Virus record (IMG/VR): IMGVR_UViG_3300037455_000100
Location: 39,305 to 103,304 of that record
Source: a virus
Lineage: Duplodnaviria; Caudoviricetes
Strand: one strand, 5' to 3'
DNA length: 64,000 bases
Position 1 is the stretch's first letter; the number at the start of each line of letters is the position of its first letter. The translations under genes and the position numbers were made by a program. Positions 7,558 to 15,514 of this stretch are shown here, piece after piece. Under the pieces are notes generated by a model, which saw only the letters and a program-made list of their open reading frames with translations, made no database searches and had not been told where the DNA came from.

Positions 7558-7589
7558 GGGACATTGTTGTGAAACGGTGTCCCATTTTT
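7558..7589 (+). terminator. Intrinsic terminator after dut
   Basis: GGGACATTGT-TGTGAA-ACGGTGTCCC followed by ATTTTT. Confidence 0.75.
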
Positions 7590-7614: not shown

Positions 7615-8061
7615 ATGGAGAAAGTAATTACTGAATTAAAACGAACCGCTGCCAATATACCTTATATAACAGTAAAACATAATAATGTTGAATTTAACTT
7701 TATTGTAGATAGTGGATGTACTATATCATGTATTGATGAAAATGTGTTAGATTTATTAGTACATACAGATACAGGAGAATTATCTGATGGAGTATTATTT
7801 GCTAACGGTGAAGGTACTAAAACTAATAAAATAATAAAATTATCTTTTAAATTAAACGATAAAGAATTTACTGAGACATTTAATGCATTAGATTTTTATA
7901 GTATGACCAAACAAGTTAAAGATAATTTTGGTATTACTGTTAGAGGATTACTTGGTAGTGAATTTTTATATAAAAATAAACTTATATTAGATTTTGATGA
8001 ATCTATTATCAAATATAGAGACAATAACCAATTAGAGTTGAATTTAAATGAACAGTCATGA
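7615..8061 (+). CDS. Retropepsin-like aspartic protease
   Basis: FIVDSGCTIS catalytic D-S-G, flap-like ANG, and GLLGSEFL motif. Confidence 0.8.
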   Translation: MEKVITELKRTAANIPYITVKHNNVEFNFIVDSGCTISCIDENVLDLLVHTDTGELSDGVLFANGEGTKTNKIIKLSFKLNDKEFTETFNALDFYSMTKQVKDNFGITVRGLLGSEFLYKNKLILDFDESIIKYRDNNQLELNLNEQS

Positions 8062-9263
8062 TTTACTTGGTATCATTACAACAAAGAATACATTCAGATG
8101 AGATAACTTTAATATCTGTAGAAGAATCTTTAAAACTTTTAAGTTCTTTAACCGTAGTAGGATTAGATACTGAAACTAGAGGAATGGACCCTTATACTAA
8201 AGAGTTATTATCTGTGCAACTTGGCTGTAATGATTTCCAAGTAGTCATAGATTGTTCTTCAATAGATATAAAATTTTATAAAGAATATTTAGAATCCGAT
8301 AGACTTTTTATAGGGTGGAATTTAAAATTTGACTTAAAGTTTTTATTTCATAAAAACATTTATCCCAAGAAAGTATATGATGGGTATCTAGCTGAGAAAC
8401 TAATGTGGTTAGGCTATCCAGCTGGTATGCACAGTATGTCTTTGAAATCTGCTGGTGTACAATATTTAGACATTGAATTAGATAAATCTGTACGCGGTAA
8501 AATACAGTGGGCAGGATTAACAGATGATGTTATTATATATGCAGCATACGATGTAAAATATTTGGATGATATACGTCTTAAACAATTAGACTTACTTAAA
8601 GAGAAGGATTTATTAAGAGCAATAGACTGTGAGAATCAGTTTATACTTCCTTTATCTTATTGTGAATATTGTGGTGTTAGATTGGATGTAGACAAATGGA
8701 AAGTTAAAATGCATAAAGATGAAGAAAGAGTTAGTAAAGCCTTAGTTAAGCTTAATGAATGGTTTCTTAAAAATGAGCCAAACTCTTCTTATATAGTAGT
8801 AGACAGACAAGGTGATTTATTCAGTGGGTTTGATTTAACACCTAAAGTAACTATAAATTGGAACAGTGCTAAACAACTTATACCTATTTTTAAAAAGTAT
8901 GGGATAGATGTTACTGTAGAAGATAGAGATAAAGGAGGAACTAAAGACAGTATTGATGCTAAACAATTAGGACCACAAAAAGATAAGTGTGACTTGATAC
9001 CTATATATTTAGACTATAAAGAAGCTGTTAAAGTTACCTCAACTTATGGTAAAAACTTTCTAGACCAAATTAATGTTGACGGTAGAATCCATACAAACTA
9101 TAATCAATTAGGAGCTGATACTACAAGAATAACTTCTGGAGGTAAAGATAAAAGCAATAATATTGATTATGTAAATCTTTTGAATTTACCAGCAGATGCC
9201 GAGACTAGAGCCTGTTTTGTAGCCGAAGAAGGTAATAAATGGATAAGTATTGATTATTCGGGT
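8058..9263 (+). CDS. polA: DNA polymerase family A, exon 1 (3'-5' exonuclease and start of polymerase domain)
   Basis: Exo motifs DTET, NLKFD and YAAYD; TTRITS; ends in motif A DYSG at a U before an in-frame TAG. Confidence 0.92.
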
Positions 9264-9309
9264 TAGCAAATAAATCGCTTATAAATTTGTGTATATGGAT
9301 TATTTTTCT

Positions 9310-9319
9310 TATATTTGCA
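9310..9319 (+). promoter_or_regulatory. Intron-internal promoter for the LAGLIDADG gene
   Basis: TATATTTGCA with TTTG about 25 nt upstream, followed by hairpin CACATTAT-TTA-ATAATGTG (9318-9336) just before the ATG. Confidence 0.7.
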
Positions 9320-9341
9320 CATTATTTAATAATGTGAATAT

Positions 9342-10163
9342 ATGAAAAAATTTAGCAAAGAAACTGAATTAGAAATAGTTAGCCTTTATAATAGAGGCTA
9401 TACTCAAAAGGAAATTGCAGATAAATTGGGAACATTTAATACTTCTATTAGAAGAGTTTTATTACGTTATAATGTATTTTTAAAGGGCAATGACAAACAG
9501 CAGAGATTGTGTAAGCATAATCCTTTTAAAAATAATGATGAATATTCTGAATACTATTTAGGATTACTCTTGACTGATGGCAATATAGACTATAAGAGTA
9601 AAAGAAATAGAATCAGATTATCACTTAACGAAATAGACGGTTATTTAGTAGAAGAGTTTTTAAATTGGTCTGCTCCTGAAGCAAAAGTTACTAAGACTTT
9701 ACAAAAGATAAACAATTCTTATATGTGGAGTGCTGCTATAACTAATAGAGAAGCTTTAGAATGGCTTGAAAGAAAAGCAAGTTTTCATAATAAAAGCTTC
9801 GATGCTAAATTATATACTCCTATAACATACAACATATTAAGAGGAATAATAGATGGTGATGGGGGATTCTACCCTCAAAACAAAAATGCTATTAAAATCT
9901 CTATTTGCGGTAAGTCCTTAGTATTTCTAAAACAAATTCAATTCTTTTTAAACAAAGAAGGCTATCACTCCAGTTTATTTGAGCATAATAATTTATATTA
10001 TATTCAAATAATGAGGGTGGAAGATGTTTTAAAATTAGGCACAAATTTATATGAAAATGCCCATATTTTCTGTAAAAGAAAGTATGAAAAATGGCTCGCC
10101 TTCTATGAAAGTAGAAGGGCAAACACCTTAAATTCAGGGAAAAAGATGGCAATTCAACCCTGA
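9342..10163 (+). CDS. Intron-encoded double-motif LAGLIDADG homing endonuclease with N-terminal HTH
   Basis: YYLGLLLTDGNI and ILRGIIDGDGGF motifs; TQKEIADKLG HTH. Confidence 0.9.
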   Translation: MKKFSKETELEIVSLYNRGYTQKEIADKLGTFNTSIRRVLLRYNVFLKGNDKQQRLCKHNPFKNNDEYSEYYLGLLLTDGNIDYKSKRNRIRLSLNEIDGYLVEEFLNWSAPEAKVTKTLQKINNSYMWSAAITNREALEWLERKASFHNKSFDAKLYTPITYNILRGIIDGDGGFYPQNKNAIKISICGKSLVFLKQIQFFLNKEGYHSSLFEHNNLYYIQIMRVEDVLKLGTNLYENAHIFCKRKYEKWLAFYESRRANTLNSGKKMAIQP

Positions 10164-10285
10164 GCGAAACCTACTCACCTTATGGTAATAATTAAAGAAG
10201 TAGGGACGTGCAGAGACTATAATAGGTGCACCTAAACATATTTATTATGCATGGTGAAGGGATAGTCCAACCTACGATTTGGTTG

Positions 10286-10472
10286 CAGGAAACGTACCTT
10301 ATGGCTTCTATAGCTAATGACGAGGCTATTATAGATGAGTTAACAAATGGTAGTGGGGATATTCACAGTCTTACTGCATATATGTCTTATAAAGAAATTC
10401 CTAGGAATACTCCTATTAAGGAGATTAAGAAGAAGTTTCATAATCTTAGACAAGAGGCTAAAGGTATAGAGT
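10286..10472 (+). CDS. polA: DNA polymerase family A, exon 2
   Basis: QETYLMA...GDIHSLTA...RQEAKGIE plus the first base of the Phe codon. Confidence 0.9.
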
Positions 10473-10537
10473 AAACATAAATAGTAAGTTTTGATTATTA
10501 TTATATTTAACTATTTGTCTATTTTAAAAATTAATTG

Positions 10538-10547
10538 TATATTTGCA
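10538..10547 (+). promoter_or_regulatory. Intron-internal promoter for the GIY-YIG gene
   Basis: TATATTTGCA with upstream TTTG. Confidence 0.7.
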
Positions 10548-10565
10548 AAATAAAATTTACAAGCT

Positions 10566-11486
10566 ATGATTATTAAAGTAGATGATTTAGAGTTACTTAA
10601 GAAGAAAGGTATATATAGTATTACTAACATATTAAATAATAAAAAATATATTGGAAGTACTGCTAAATCCTTTCAATCAAGACTTACTCAGCATTTAAGT
10701 AAACTAAGATTACAAAAGCATCATTGTGTACATTTACAATATGCTTGGACTAAATACGGTGAAGATAATTTTATATTCACTATTGAAGAGGTTTTAGATA
10801 ATGTAGATAATTTATTAGATAAGGAAGCTGAATATATAGCTAAGTATGATAGTTATCATTCTGGCTATAATGCTAATCCAAACCCTAATACATCCCCTAT
10901 GTTTAATGTAAATTCTAAAGAGAAAAGTTCTTTAACTCATAAACAACAATGGGAAAATCTACGAAATTCTATGACCGAAGAAGAATATCAGTCTTTTGTT
11001 AAAGATAGGTATGCTTTTCGATATGGAATTTCTCCGGCAAATAAGGGTAAAAAGGCTTCAGAAGAAATTAAAGTTAAAATGAGAAAGCCTAAGGTAAACG
11101 GAGTCACATCAGCCATGAAAGCTGTACATATTAAAAATGCAGAACTTATCAAAGATAAATCTGATTATATTTTAGTTTACGATATAAATAAAAATTGGAT
11201 TAATACTTTTAGGTGTAATTCGGACTTAGTATGGTATAGTAAATCGGAGTTTAATGACCTACCAATGATTCTTAAAAAGAATAGTAGTAGGTTCTTAGAC
11301 CCCTCCAAAATTGCTAACCATATTAAAGACGGAAGACCCTATAAAGGATTATATTTCGTGCGAGCTCCCAAGAGTAGGAAACTCTCTTGTGCAAATGGGA
11401 TGAATTCATGGAAAGCTGAAAAGCCAATCATGAGCCAAGCAGGAAGTACACTTTCTGAAGGTGCAGAGACTACTGGAGAGGTTTAG
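10566..11486 (+). CDS. Intron-encoded GIY-YIG homing endonuclease
   Basis: GIYSITNILNNKKYIGS, conserved R, E and GYN; NUMOD-like basic C-terminal segments. Confidence 0.92.
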   Translation: MIIKVDDLELLKKKGIYSITNILNNKKYIGSTAKSFQSRLTQHLSKLRLQKHHCVHLQYAWTKYGEDNFIFTIEEVLDNVDNLLDKEAEYIAKYDSYHSGYNANPNPNTSPMFNVNSKEKSSLTHKQQWENLRNSMTEEEYQSFVKDRYAFRYGISPANKGKKASEEIKVKMRKPKVNGVTSAMKAVHIKNAELIKDKSDYILVYDINKNWINTFRCNSDLVWYSKSEFNDLPMILKKNSSRFLDPSKIANHIKDGRPYKGLYFVRAPKSRKLSCANGMNSWKAEKPIMSQAGSTLSEGAETTGEV

Positions 11487-11579
11487 CCCTCTTAATAACC
11501 AGCTAGAGCGTCCCACACCTAAACATATTTATTATGCATGGTGATGATATAGTCCAACGGGTGAATGCTGCACCCTATG

Positions 11580-12217
11580 TCGCTATTAATTATGGAGGAG
11601 ATGCTAATACTATCTCTAAAAACAAGGGTATTCCTATAGAAGAGGCTAATACTATCTATAATAGTTATATGGAAGGCTTTAAAGGTCTTAAGAGATATCA
11701 AGACTTTAGAAGAAAAGATTGGTTTGATAAAGGATATATTCTATTAAGTCCTATTACTGGGCACAAAGCTTATATATATGACTGGAAAAAACTTAAAGAG
11801 GATAGAGCCAAAATGTCTGAGGAAGGATTTTGGGATGGATATAAAGATTTAAAAATGTTCTATCCAGAGCATTATAAAGTGCAAATGGTAAGAAATTTCT
11901 TTAAAAGAAAATCTGCTTCAGAGAAACAGTCAATTAATTACCCGATACAAGCAGCTGGCTCATTTTGTTTAAGATTATCCCTTGTATACTTCTTTAATTA
12001 TATTAGACAAAATAATTTATTAGGAAAGGTAAAAATATGTGTAACTCCTTATGATGAAGTTAACTGTGAAGCTCCTGAGAGTATAGCTGATACAGTAGCA
12101 GATGTATTATATAAATGTATGGTAAAAGCAGGCTCTTTCTTTTGTGATAAATGTAAATTAGATGCTGATATAAGCAAGCTAGATGACGGAACGTTACCAA
12201 CATATTGGATTCATTAA
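11580..12217 (+). CDS. polA: DNA polymerase family A, exon 3
   Basis: AINYGG, NYPIQ, motif C variant PYDE. Confidence 0.92.
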
Positions 12218-12229
12218 AAACATATTAAC

Positions 12230-12457
12230 ATGGAAAACAAATTATTTGACAATATAAATAATCCTTCGCATTATTGTGAAGGCAGGCAATATGAGCCTAT
12301 AGCCGTAATTAAAGATTGGAATTTAGATTTCAATCTTGGTAACGTAGTTAAGTATATCTCTAGAGCAGGTAGGAAAAATGATGCTCTAGAAGACCTCAAA
12401 AAAGCTAAATTTTATCTTGATTGGGAGATAGAATACTTAGAAAGTATAACTAAATAG
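12230..12457 (+). CDS. DUF3310 / T7 gp1.7-like protein
   Basis: NPSHY, FNLGNVVKYISRAGRK, EDLKKAKFYL. Confidence 0.85.
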   Translation: MENKLFDNINNPSHYCEGRQYEPIAVIKDWNLDFNLGNVVKYISRAGRKNDALEDLKKAKFYLDWEIEYLESITK

Positions 12458-12509
12458 AAATTTTTTATTATTGATTTGTAACAAGTTATAAGAAGATTTA
12501 AAAATAAAT

Positions 12510-12542
12510 TTTGGTAGTTTAAAAATATGTCATATCTTTGCA
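12510..12542 (+). promoter_or_regulatory. Bacteroidetes sigma-A promoter preceding the non-coding region
   Basis: TTTG (-33, ~12510) and TATCTTTG (-7, 12533-12540). Confidence 0.75.
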
Positions 12543-12545
12543 AAC

Positions 12546-13060
12546 GTAATCAAGACGAAGCTGGTTACAGATAATAAAAATTGAACCCTTATTTACCTGA
12601 TAAGCCTAATGGCATAAAAAACCCCTGTAATCCAGCTTCGTAATATGATTGCAGGGGAATTTTATTTCCATTAGGCTTTTTATTAAGCCAAAGACATATT
12701 AAAATGCTGATTCTTTAACTAGAAATCATGTGGTAAGAGCTGACGTTATAGAGAAGATAAGCCATCAACGCTGAGGTTATCGGTGAATCGAACGTTTACT
12801 CAGTAGGATGTAAAGAACCTCTGAAAGGAAAAGGGATGTACGCACGAACAGAGGCAGCAGGTCAATAAGGGTGCTGGTGCATGAGTGGATTTCATAATGC
12901 CTGAAAGTTGAATAGTGAACCACCATTTTATTCAACGCATGACACACTGAATTATACTGTGTAACAGTTGTCATAGATACCATCCTATGCTCTAAGCTGC
13001 TTTTCTTACAGTTAAAGAAAAGAAGTAGCTGGAGTTTAGGGGATGGTATGCAATCACCTG
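12546..13060 (+). ncRNA. Candidate structured non-coding RNA or cis-regulatory region, family unknown
   Basis: No sizeable + strand ORF, raised GC, consecutive stem-loops with G-U pairs, own promoter. Confidence 0.55.
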
Positions 13061-13113
13061 AATTACCTGTGTAACAATTTAAGAGTTAAACAATTAATAT
13101 AGAATAATATAAC

Positions 13114-13350
13114 ATGATTATAGACACAGATAAGTTTAAATACAAACCGCAAGATGAATTTTGGCTTATGGCTGACAATGAGCCTGCATGTATAAAAATA
13201 CACTCTATAAGCATTCAATATATAAATTGGATAATTGAAAGTGTTGAGGTTTTTTATAGGTGTACTAACTCTAGAACATATACAGAACAATATTTAGATT
13301 CGTTATGTCGTACTAAAGAAGAATTATGTAAGAGAGTTTTTAATGTATAA
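13114..13350 (+). CDS. Hypothetical protein
   Basis: 78 aa ORF with AT-rich leader. Confidence 0.65.
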   Translation: MIIDTDKFKYKPQDEFWLMADNEPACIKIHSISIQYINWIIESVEVFYRCTNSRTYTEQYLDSLCRTKEELCKRVFNV

Positions 13351-13357
13351 TTGATTT

Positions 13358-13501
13358 ATGGATAAAGAAGAATTTATTAAAAACGCTACTCAGATATTAC
13401 AAGACTGTGGTTTAACAGAATCTCAATCTGAAGCACTGGCAAATCTTACTATAACATCTGAAAAGAATAAGATTAAGCAATTGATAGATGATACCGTATA
13501 A
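13358..13501 (+). CDS. Small hypothetical protein (47 aa, MDKEEFIKN...)
   Basis: Not in the track; fills the gap between neighbouring genes. Confidence 0.55.
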   Translation: MDKEEFIKNATQILQDCGLTESQSEALANLTITSEKNKIKQLIDDTV

Positions 13502-13916
13502 TAATATAACAAAGCATGATTTTGTACCTGTAGATGTATGTAAAACTATGCAAGAAGCTGGTGTTCCTACAGATGATGCATATTACTTTATTACTAAGTA
13601 CAGATTCTATAATCATTATGAAATCCATACTAAAGAAGAAGTGTCTAAATTAGTACTACAACCAGATGAAATATACCCTACTTATACTCTATCACAGCTT
13701 TTATATAAATTAGATGAATGGCATCCAGATTATAAAGGACTTACGTTTTATAAAGATGCTCCGTTCTATTTCTTCTTATATGAAGACGCTAAAGATGAAT
13801 CTGAGTTTAGTTTAGTAGCTGATAGTCCTATTGTAGCTGCTGCCTATCTGCTTATAAACTGTGTTAAAGAAGGTTTTGGTTGTGTTAAAAATATAAATAG
13901 TAAATATGAATCATGA
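13488..13916 (+). CDS. Hypothetical protein
   Basis: 142 aa ORF, PTYTLSQLL motif. Confidence 0.7.
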   Translation: MIPYNNITKHDFVPVDVCKTMQEAGVPTDDAYYFITKYRFYNHYEIHTKEEVSKLVLQPDEIYPTYTLSQLLYKLDEWHPDYKGLTFYKDAPFYFFLYEDAKDESEFSLVADSPIVAAAYLLINCVKEGFGCVKNINSKYES

Positions 13917-14073
13917 TATAGTACATTGTATTGGTACAGACTGCCCTAAAAAAGATAAATGTTATAGGTTTAGAGCTTTACAGGATATTAATAAACCTAT
14001 ATACATAAATATTATGAACAGTGAATCTTGTATTAAAATTAATTATAAATTATTCTATAGTTATGAAAATTAA
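13906..14073 (+). CDS. Small Cys-rich protein (55 aa, HCIGTDCPKKDKCYRF)
   Basis: Not in the track; CxxxxCPxxxxCYR pattern plus a fourth Cys; overlaps both neighbours. Confidence 0.65.
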   Translation: MNHDIVHCIGTDCPKKDKCYRFRALQDINKPIYINIMNSESCIKINYKLFYSYEN

Positions 14074-14617
14074 AACGTTAGAGATAAGTGGGTTTCATAG
14101 TGCTTTAGAAGCATTAAGATTACCATATAGTTTACCACCAAGAAGTATAGGTACTAATAGTATAGATTTGTCAGGTAGTGTAAATAATGAAATTGATAAT
14201 GTAATCACTAATATTAATGTTGTATCTGTAAATAAGAAAGACTTAAATTTACTGTCAACATTAGTTAAAAGAGGTCCAGAACACGCTAAAGTACTTAGAG
14301 GTATTGTAGTATATGCTAAAATTACAGCTCCTATCTATATATGGTGTGAAATTGAGACGTACACAGTAGGACATTATAGACTATCAAGTGAATCTACTAT
14401 GCACACTGATTGTAAAGGATTATCTGGAGAAGAACTTCAATTAGCTAAAGCTTCTATTCCTATGGGTAAAGAACTTACTAAAGTAGATATGTTCAATTAC
14501 CAATCCTTACGTAACATTTATTTTCAACGTAGAAATCACAGATTACCTGAATGGCATGAATTCTGTGATTATATTACTACACTTCCTTATGCAAAAGAAC
14601 TAATAACTATAGAATAA
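14063..14617 (+). CDS. Divergent ThyX-like (Thy1-fold) protein
   Basis: H.K.LR, APIYIW, SSESTMH, NYQSLRNIYFQRRNHRLPEW. ATG at 14063 preferred. Confidence 0.6.
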   Translation: MKIKTLEISGFHSALEALRLPYSLPPRSIGTNSIDLSGSVNNEIDNVITNINVVSVNKKDLNLLSTLVKRGPEHAKVLRGIVVYAKITAPIYIWCEIETYTVGHYRLSSESTMHTDCKGLSGEELQLAKASIPMGKELTKVDMFNYQSLRNIYFQRRNHRLPEWHEFCDYITTLPYAKELITIE

Positions 14618-14618
14618 T

Positions 14619-15077
14619 ATGAGTTTAGATGTTTACGCTAAAATAGATGATAGGAAGATATTAGAAGGTAAACAGTATGGTACTTCGTATTATTATTGGA
14701 GTAGAGACGAAAGAGAAACTATTCAATATTTAACAGATACTGTATTATGGATTAATATAACACATAATCTTGGTGATATGGCATCCCATGTACCAATAGA
14801 GTTTTATGATGATTGTGGTAATTATTATAAAACTGATTTATATCATATAATGTGGAGACCAGAAGAAGTGTTTGTTAATAAAGAGAACATTAAACTAGCT
14901 GATGTTAGAGAGCCAATTGAAATAGGATTAAAATATGTACTATCAAACGAAGAAGAGTTAAGTAAATATAATCCTGAGAATGGTTGGGGTCATTATGATA
15001 ATTTCGTATATTGTTTGCCTGAGTATATCAGAGCTTGTTATAAATATCCTAACGCAACAATTACAATTAGCAGATAG
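14619..15077 (+). CDS. Hypothetical phage protein
   Basis: MSLDV, NITHNL, YNPENGWG motifs. Confidence 0.7.
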   Translation: MSLDVYAKIDDRKILEGKQYGTSYYYWSRDERETIQYLTDTVLWINITHNLGDMASHVPIEFYDDCGNYYKTDLYHIMWRPEEVFVNKENIKLADVREPIEIGLKYVLSNEEELSKYNPENGWGHYDNFVYCLPEYIRACYKYPNATITISR

Positions 15078-15097
15078 TTAAGTCTAATTTATGTGAA

Positions 15098-15132
15098 GGT
15101 TATACTCTATATGGGTATAACCTATTTTTTTT
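15098..15132 (+). terminator. Intrinsic terminator
   Basis: GGTTATACTC-TATAT-GGGTATAACC followed by a T-run. Confidence 0.8.
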
Positions 15133-15501: not shown

Positions 15502-15514
15502 TAGTAATTTTGCA
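15502..15514 (+). promoter_or_regulatory. Promoter of the RNAP gene
   Basis: TAGTAATTTTGCA. Confidence 0.7.

Follow-up and report, generated by a model that had tools for sequence, protein, structure and literature searches.

Does an RNA leader that can adopt two mutually exclusive folds directly behind a promoter decide whether the phage genes downstream of it are transcribed? This question was raised by a locus in a stretch of 64,000 nucleotides (the window). The virus record from which the window was taken is 103,304 bp long and has direct terminal repeats; the window covers its bases 39305-103304. The family-A DNA polymerase (PolA) encoded there shares 72% identity with its counterpart in IAS virus and 60% with the one in Bacteroides phage crAss001, both of which belong to the Crassvirales, Steigviridae. 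Judged by its sequence, the source of the window is a crAss-like (Crassvirales) gut phage. Few viruses of animal guts are more abundant than phages of this kind and, to our knowledge, little has been learned about their gene regulation.

The locus sits within the replication block of the genome, a 30-kb block of genes on the + strand. A complete DUF3310 gene (12230-12457) lies directly upstream of an ORF-free stretch, behind which an orphan ORF of 78 amino acids starts at 13114, followed by further small ORFs up to 15077. All six frames of the 656-nt stretch 3' of the DUF3310 gene were closed under genetic codes 11 and 4 and with TAG read as Q, which led us to reject hidden coding (TAG=Q or TGA=W) as well as a decayed gene. 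The G+C content of the ORF-free region was 0.36-0.42, compared to about 0.30 in its flanks. No tRNA or tmRNA was found in it, and across the window no Rfam model reached its gathering score; the only matches, to miRNA and snoRNA families with E values of up to 10, were of chance level. A group I intron or other ribozyme was also discarded, as there was no Rfam match and the completeness of the flanking DUF3310 gene leaves no exons to be joined; the Rfam negative weighs little in the case of introns, since Rfam also missed both ORF-bearing insertions of the polymerase gene. That gene (8058-12217) consists of three in-frame pieces separated by two insertions, whose junctions were placed from relatives carrying an uninterrupted 679-aa gene. 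Insertion 1 (9264-10285) contains a LAGLIDADG-type homing-endonuclease ORF and insertion 2 (10472 to about 11581) a GIY-YIG-type one, each with its own TAnnTTTGCA promoter box, and neither was recognised as an intron by Rfam. The GIY-YIG insertion is also present in the relative L003, with 77-82% DNA identity and a partly deleted endonuclease ORF.

Pattern matching revealed a promoter of the Bacteroidota sigma-A type on the + strand at 12510-12540, made up of a -33 element TTTG (12510-12513), a spacer of 19 nucleotides and the -7 element TATCTTTG (12533-12540), which in its extended form reads TTTGCAAA. The consensus of this type is TTTG at -33 and TAnnTTTG at -7 (PMC7366714), and the leader promoter belongs to it and not to the sigma-70 type. 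An extended consensus, TTTGGTAGTTTAAAA-N6-12-TAnnTTTGCA, occurred near letter-for-letter in more than 74 IMG/VR contigs of unrelated phages, mostly 20-45 nt before an ATG or before tRNA- or sRNA-like genes; it would seem that phages share TTTGGTAGTTTAAAA...TAnnTTTGCA as a very strong consensus of promoters for the Bacteroidota host polymerase. The motif TTTGCA is also common to six other intergenic promoters of this phage genome. The leader promoter is a strong host-type match and we regard it as credible. Transcription is predicted to start at about 12544-12546, 4-6 nt past TAnnTTTG according to the published consensus (PMC7366714), and G12546, the first paired base of the structures described below, coincides with this position. 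On the - strand, a -7-like box TACGTTTG (12541-12548) stands back to back with the + strand promoter because TTTGCAAA is palindromic; running from 12548 to 12541, it has neither a clear -33 element nor an ORF behind it. CrAss-like phages also encode RNA polymerases of their own, and the use of a host-type promoter at the leader is assumed here; host-type boxes precede several genes of the genome.

The RNA that would start at this promoter can fold in two ways. In the antiterminator, the 5'-terminal strand 12546-12570 pairs with 12625-12652 over 23 bp, including one G.U, in three parts: 12546-12552 with 12646-12652 (7 bp), 12555-12564 with 12632-12641 (10 bp) and 12565-12570 with 12625-12630 (6 bp, U12631 being bulged). 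In the alternative fold, 12602-12678 forms a terminator-like hairpin of 77 nt, with an outer stem of 11 bp (12602-12612 with 12668-12678), an A/U middle stem (12614-12619 with 12660-12665) and a G+C-rich inner stem of 11 bp (12622-12632 with 12647-12657; -15.9 kcal/mol), closed by a 14-nt loop that is large for an intrinsic terminator. Two U-tracts lie within 12658-12685: AAUUUUAUUU follows the inner stem and UUUUUAUU the outer one. The strand 12625-12652 would be paired either with the 5' segment, giving read-through, or within the inner terminator stem, giving a stop, and as both folds use it they are mutually exclusive. The complementarity, the nesting of the hairpin 12622-12657 in 12602-12678 before a U-run, the exclusion of one fold by the other and the location directly after a promoter had all been proposed in the initial annotation, and all of them were recovered here. 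A promoter directly upstream, a G+C-rich hairpin with a U-tract and an alternative pairing that excludes this hairpin, the sequence features of an attenuator, are present together.

Alone, the 5'-terminal strand makes only a weak hairpin (12546-12568; 12546-12551 with 12563-12568, 11-nt loop, -5.3 kcal/mol), the loop of which is complementary to the terminator loop. The A/U-rich linker 12571-12601 is mostly unpaired in both folds, and the 54-nt spacer of the antiterminator fold (12571-12624) makes only hairpins of 5 and 3 bp. Three G.U pairs (U12550.G12564, U12547.G12651 and U12628.G12651) would be A.C mismatches on the other strand. Because these pairs are strand-specific, a + strand RNA is favoured over a pure DNA repeat, and it is the likely functional form of the leader.

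In a 145-nt RNA, the antiterminator fold was the energy minimum (-46.2 kcal/mol, compared to -42.8 kcal/mol for the terminator fold) and made up 77-92% of the ensemble, depending on the number of pairs enforced. When the RNA ended at 12685 the order was reversed, with values of -42.8 kcal/mol for the terminator and -39.5 kcal/mol for the antiterminator. The refolding barrier along the best direct path between the two folds was about 34 kcal/mol, an upper estimate that ignores kissing intermediates. The 145-nt fold had a z of -5.6, and none of 200 shuffles was as stable. The duplex of the 5' segment with its target (-32.0 kcal/mol) was the best non-self partner among 41,306 windows scanned on both strands of the 103-kb genome, for which the mean was -8.1 kcal/mol (sd 2.9) and the next best non-self value -21.7 kcal/mol. 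No second complementary site for the 5' segment was present in the 103-kb genome, and a trans target elsewhere in it was discarded, as none was found. The best upstream partners of 13 other terminator-like hairpins in the window reached only -6.9 to -17.4 kcal/mol. Given the z value, the rank of the duplex and the comparison with these 13 hairpins, the bistable arrangement at 12546-12678 is real and exceptional.

We also analysed folding in the course of transcription. In equilibrium folding at each transcript length, the 5' hairpin formed first, and the antiterminator appeared once 12630-12642 was out and was kept until 12674. In a barrier-limited co-transcriptional walk, transcripts with starts from 12520 to 12548 all ended in the antiterminator, with thresholds of 10, 15 and 20 kcal/mol for the 12546 start and of 12 kcal/mol for the other three. 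Since the walk always ended in this fold, read-through is the predicted default for promoter-born transcripts. Starts upstream of the promoter, taken as a proxy for read-through from the DUF3310 gene, ended in the terminator in four of six cases, and in those four 12462-12487 had already paired with 12560-12580. This + strand segment upstream of the promoter (segment 1) is a tentative candidate for an anti-antiterminator, its pairing with 12560-12580 being weak (-15.4 kcal/mol, rank 218 of 20,653). A 15-codon ORF (12528-12575), present only in upstream-born transcripts, spans the antiterminator strand. Segment 1 and this ORF are only candidate inputs; as regards a sensing input for the choice of fold, neither an Rfam aptamer family nor an antisense partner in the genome was found.

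With moderate confidence, we propose that the leader is a promoter-proximal, default-on transcription attenuator that works through RNA structure alone and serves an accessory gene cassette. Host RNA polymerase would start at about 12546 from the consensus promoter, and the first 25 nt of the RNA would fold into the weak hairpin. Once 12625-12641 emerges, the loop-forming CCAGCUUCGU would pair with the exposed ACGAAGCUGG and the duplex would grow to 23 bp; formed before the synthesis of the terminator 3' arm, this antiterminator would block the stop hairpin, and the polymerase would then continue along the 570-nt leader into the ORFs at 13114-15077. If the 5' segment were held back, the 77-nt hairpin and its U-tracts would form and transcription would stop at about 12665-12685. 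A protein or an RNA could exert this hold by stabilising the 5' hairpin; alternatively, upstream RNA or a ribosome could do so in transcripts coming from the PolA/DUF3310 genes. The in silico work established the pairings and their significance, two folds of almost equal energy with a high barrier between them, and read-through as the default of promoter-born transcripts; the firing of the promoter, termination at the hairpin and the nature of the input signal we infer.

With default read-through and a free 5' segment, the terminator would be idle for promoter-born transcripts. A further reading, rather unlikely in our judgement, is that it discriminates between promoters, stopping polymerases of the PolA/DUF3310 operon and letting pass own-promoter transcripts, whose 5' antiterminator is free. 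In upstream-born RNA, the antiterminator strand would be masked by the 12462-12487 RNA or by a ribosome on ORF 12528-12575. Since the pairing of segment 1 is weak, we put this promoter-specific bypass forward as a hypothesis. If true, a factor-free terminator would tell transcripts apart by their start site, and one compact element would serve as both operon insulator and private gate without a protein factor.

Regarding the genes that the attenuator might control, only four strong terminator-like sites were found between genes of the 30-kb + strand block: those at 7558, 15097 and 30431 and the inner hairpin, which has an A-tract upstream and a U-tract downstream. The only + strand TAnnTTTG between 12541 and 15504 was found at 14163, inside the ORF 14021-14617, and no other intergenic + strand promoter box occurred in that interval; the virion RNA polymerase (vRNAP) promoter at 15505 is the one further intergenic box on the + strand up to 15600. 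The next intrinsic-terminator-like hairpin on the + strand (15097-15123) has a U8 tract and is the likely end of the unit. As there is no intergenic promoter in between and the next + strand terminator is the one at 15097-15123, the block of six or seven small ORFs at 13114-15077 is included in the unit and putatively gated by the leader, and the predicted transcription unit runs from 12546 through the leader and these ORFs to 15097-15123. The initial annotation had suggested gating of a non-coding region rather than of an ORF, which was not borne out: the rest of the leader (12686-13113) is indeed ORF-free over about 430 nt, but the predicted unit reaches the ORFs. Three of them belong to widespread phage-only families, and the ORFs at 13114-15077 are without known function. 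Within the rest of the leader, three hairpins were predicted at 12880-13062 (z -3.6). The 290 nt at 12686-12975 are non-coding and purine-rich, with a G+C content of about 0.42; they folded no better than shuffles (z +1.27), and no relative of them was found.

The closest known logic is that of the pLS20 zipper-type attenuator and of plasmid 'preemptor' leaders, and the leader fits no known family. [quoted passage not shown] The leader has the same weak upstream stem-loop complementary to the terminator 5' stem and loop, the same default and two folds close in free energy. Unlike cATTpLS20, it lacks a long central stem-loop (ext-SL-3), its spacer stems having at most 5 bp, and its transcript starts with the antiterminator strand itself; it is located in a Bacteroidota phage, next to PolA, DUF3310 and small ORFs, and not in a Gram-positive conjugative plasmid, with neither the conAn1/conAn gene context nor sequence similarity. 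As the central long stem is absent and the context differs, the leader resembles cATTpLS20 in logic without being a member.

In the leaders of the plasmids pT181, pIP501 and pAMbeta1, attenuation is driven by antisense RNA. Near the 5' end of these leaders, a 'preemptor' captures the 5' arm of the terminator, so that read-through is the default, and the terminator can form when the preemptor is blocked. The phage leader shares the preemptor logic and the default, so that the likeness to plasmid copy-control leaders suggested in the initial annotation fits. Unlike in these plasmids, no replication-initiator gene lies downstream, there is no countertranscript promoter over the 5' segment, the only - strand -7-like box pointing away from the leader, and there is no complementary RNA elsewhere in the phage genome. 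Phage P1 c4 and P22 sar are antisense regulators, and like them the leader combines complementary RNA segments in one phage transcript, but it has no ant/icd-type target and no occlusion of a ribosome-binding site, and its pairing competes with a terminator and not with translation. The suggestion of an antisense-sensed, P1 c4-like switch found no support, as there is no countertranscript promoter over the 5' segment, no second complementary site in the 103-kb genome and no Rfam match above chance level. The mutually exclusive antiterminator (2:3) and terminator (3:4) also recall the 1:2/2:3/3:4 attenuators of the trp type, as do the candidate segment 1 and the 15-codon ORF over segment 2. However, the leader promoter lies between segments 1 and 2, so that promoter-born transcripts lack segment 1 and the start of the mini-ORF; moreover, this ORF has no run of regulatory codons and the 1:2 pairing is weak. 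An attenuator, as first suggested, offers the best available logic.

Other readings of the same structures were weighed against the attenuator. The locus might be a stand-alone small RNA gene, which we consider improbable, whose RNA, about 120-140 nt long with its end at the hairpin, would act in trans; the 5' stem-loop, an A/U-rich single-stranded seed and the terminator would be the parts of this RNA, and the loop-loop complementarity would give a compact kissing fold and not a switch. Canonical Bacteroides sRNAs have a transcription start and an intrinsic terminator (PMC7366714). At 139 nt the terminator fold was the more stable one. Other Bacteroidota phages (L194/L232/L256 and L213/L231) have short units of promoter, hairpin and terminator that are driven by the same promoter consensus. 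Nevertheless, the complementarity extends past both loops into the stems, which a kissing contact would not need, co-transcriptional modelling puts the antiterminator before the terminator can form, and no trans target stands out in the phage genome.

Quite improbable, in our view, is a plain bidirectional terminator of the PolA/DUF3310 operon, the upstream copy of which would be an inverted duplication at the DNA level (a repeat, a binding site for a protein or the scar of a recombination event) that plays no part in any RNA switch. Strand-specific G.U pairs and a copy that begins exactly at the predicted transcription start speak against it, even though the inner hairpin is terminator-like on both strands, with its A-tract and U-tract, and the relatives L003 and IAS virus end their PolA/DUF3310 module with a plain terminator followed by a promoter. 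The 5' segment is a diverged reverse-complement copy of the hairpin core, and a third related copy at 13024-13045 resembles a second copy of the 5' segment; yet a dimeric operator would have no need for the non-palindromic core ACGAAGCUGG, which has been retained, and a 54-bp spacer is short for an invertible segment. An invertible DNA switch was rejected on that spacer length and because the promoter lies outside the repeats. Very doubtful is a single large structured RNA of about 500 nt (12546-13060), in which the alternative pairings would belong to the architecture or to successive stages of folding rather than to a transcription switch. Genome-wide, the linker 12571-12601 does have its best partner 260 nt downstream (12585-12599 with 12858-12872) and 12622-12641 its second-best at 13027-13042 (with 12622-12637), both within the same ORF-free region, but in energy neither pair stood clear of the genome-wide tail (-20.7 vs -20.0 and -23.8 vs -22.1 kcal/mol). 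The raised G+C content and a whole-region fold with a z of -4.5 are set against the middle 290 nt, which fold no better than shuffles, and the lack of an Rfam match.

In order to find homologues of the leader, BLAST, nhmmer and a covariance model of the terminator fold were applied to about 260 loci from IMG/VR and JGI metagenomes, leaving out contigs of DUF3310 relatives with 81-87% identity (ENA/Logan assemblies), and to five whole relatives, and only the window itself was recovered. No leader homologue was detected in 12 PolA-relative loci, 160 DUF3310-neighbour loci (IMG/VR and JGI metagenomes), the whole records of the five relatives (BLAST and covariance model) or 92 further sources (covariance model), nor by way of the 198-aa ORF; exact 17- and 20-mers from the leader gave chance matches only, and the downstream 78-aa ORF had no relative in 5.8 billion proteins or in IMG/VR. 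Matches in relatives reflected the shared promoter consensus and were rejected as homology. L003, the relative with the most similar PolA C-terminal exon (72% identity), showed marginal similarity between L003:3165-3311 and 12465-12608 (1 of 500 shuffles), which was discarded as it has no -7 box and no equivalent antiterminator, the best equivalent duplex reaching -15.8 kcal/mol compared to -32.0 kcal/mol in the leader. The leader is a singleton that no other known phage carries, a single instance supported in silico. Coming from one uncultured phage alone, the finding has limited practical value. If the attenuator reading were true, accessory gene cassettes of crAss-like phages would be timed or insulated by attenuators of the host polymerase, and the logic of a weak upstream hairpin set against a terminator, as in Gram-positive plasmids, would reach Bacteroidota phages.

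Several other loci attracted our attention in these comparisons. The short units of L194/L232/L256 and L213/L231 look like two small-RNA gene families, one of which shares GGAGGCTACATAAGAAAACTC. In IAS virus (NC_049978.1; L262:3134-3760, - strand), a 766-nt unannotated gap before the 'molybdenum carrier' gene contains an open 208-codon frame with a run of N, then a terminator and a promoter, and is an annotation gap and not a non-coding RNA. Outside the window, genome positions 14500-14840 are G+C-rich and ORF-poor and lie ahead of a tRNA-Leu/Arg/Gln cluster. Finally, the relative G002 (102.6 kb; L178, 46326-46365, - strand) carries the same promoter followed by a 16-bp terminator-like hairpin, a U-tract and a five-tRNA array, and a 10-nt 5' stretch in it shows complementarity to the loop of this hairpin, recalling the leader arrangement in a weaker form.
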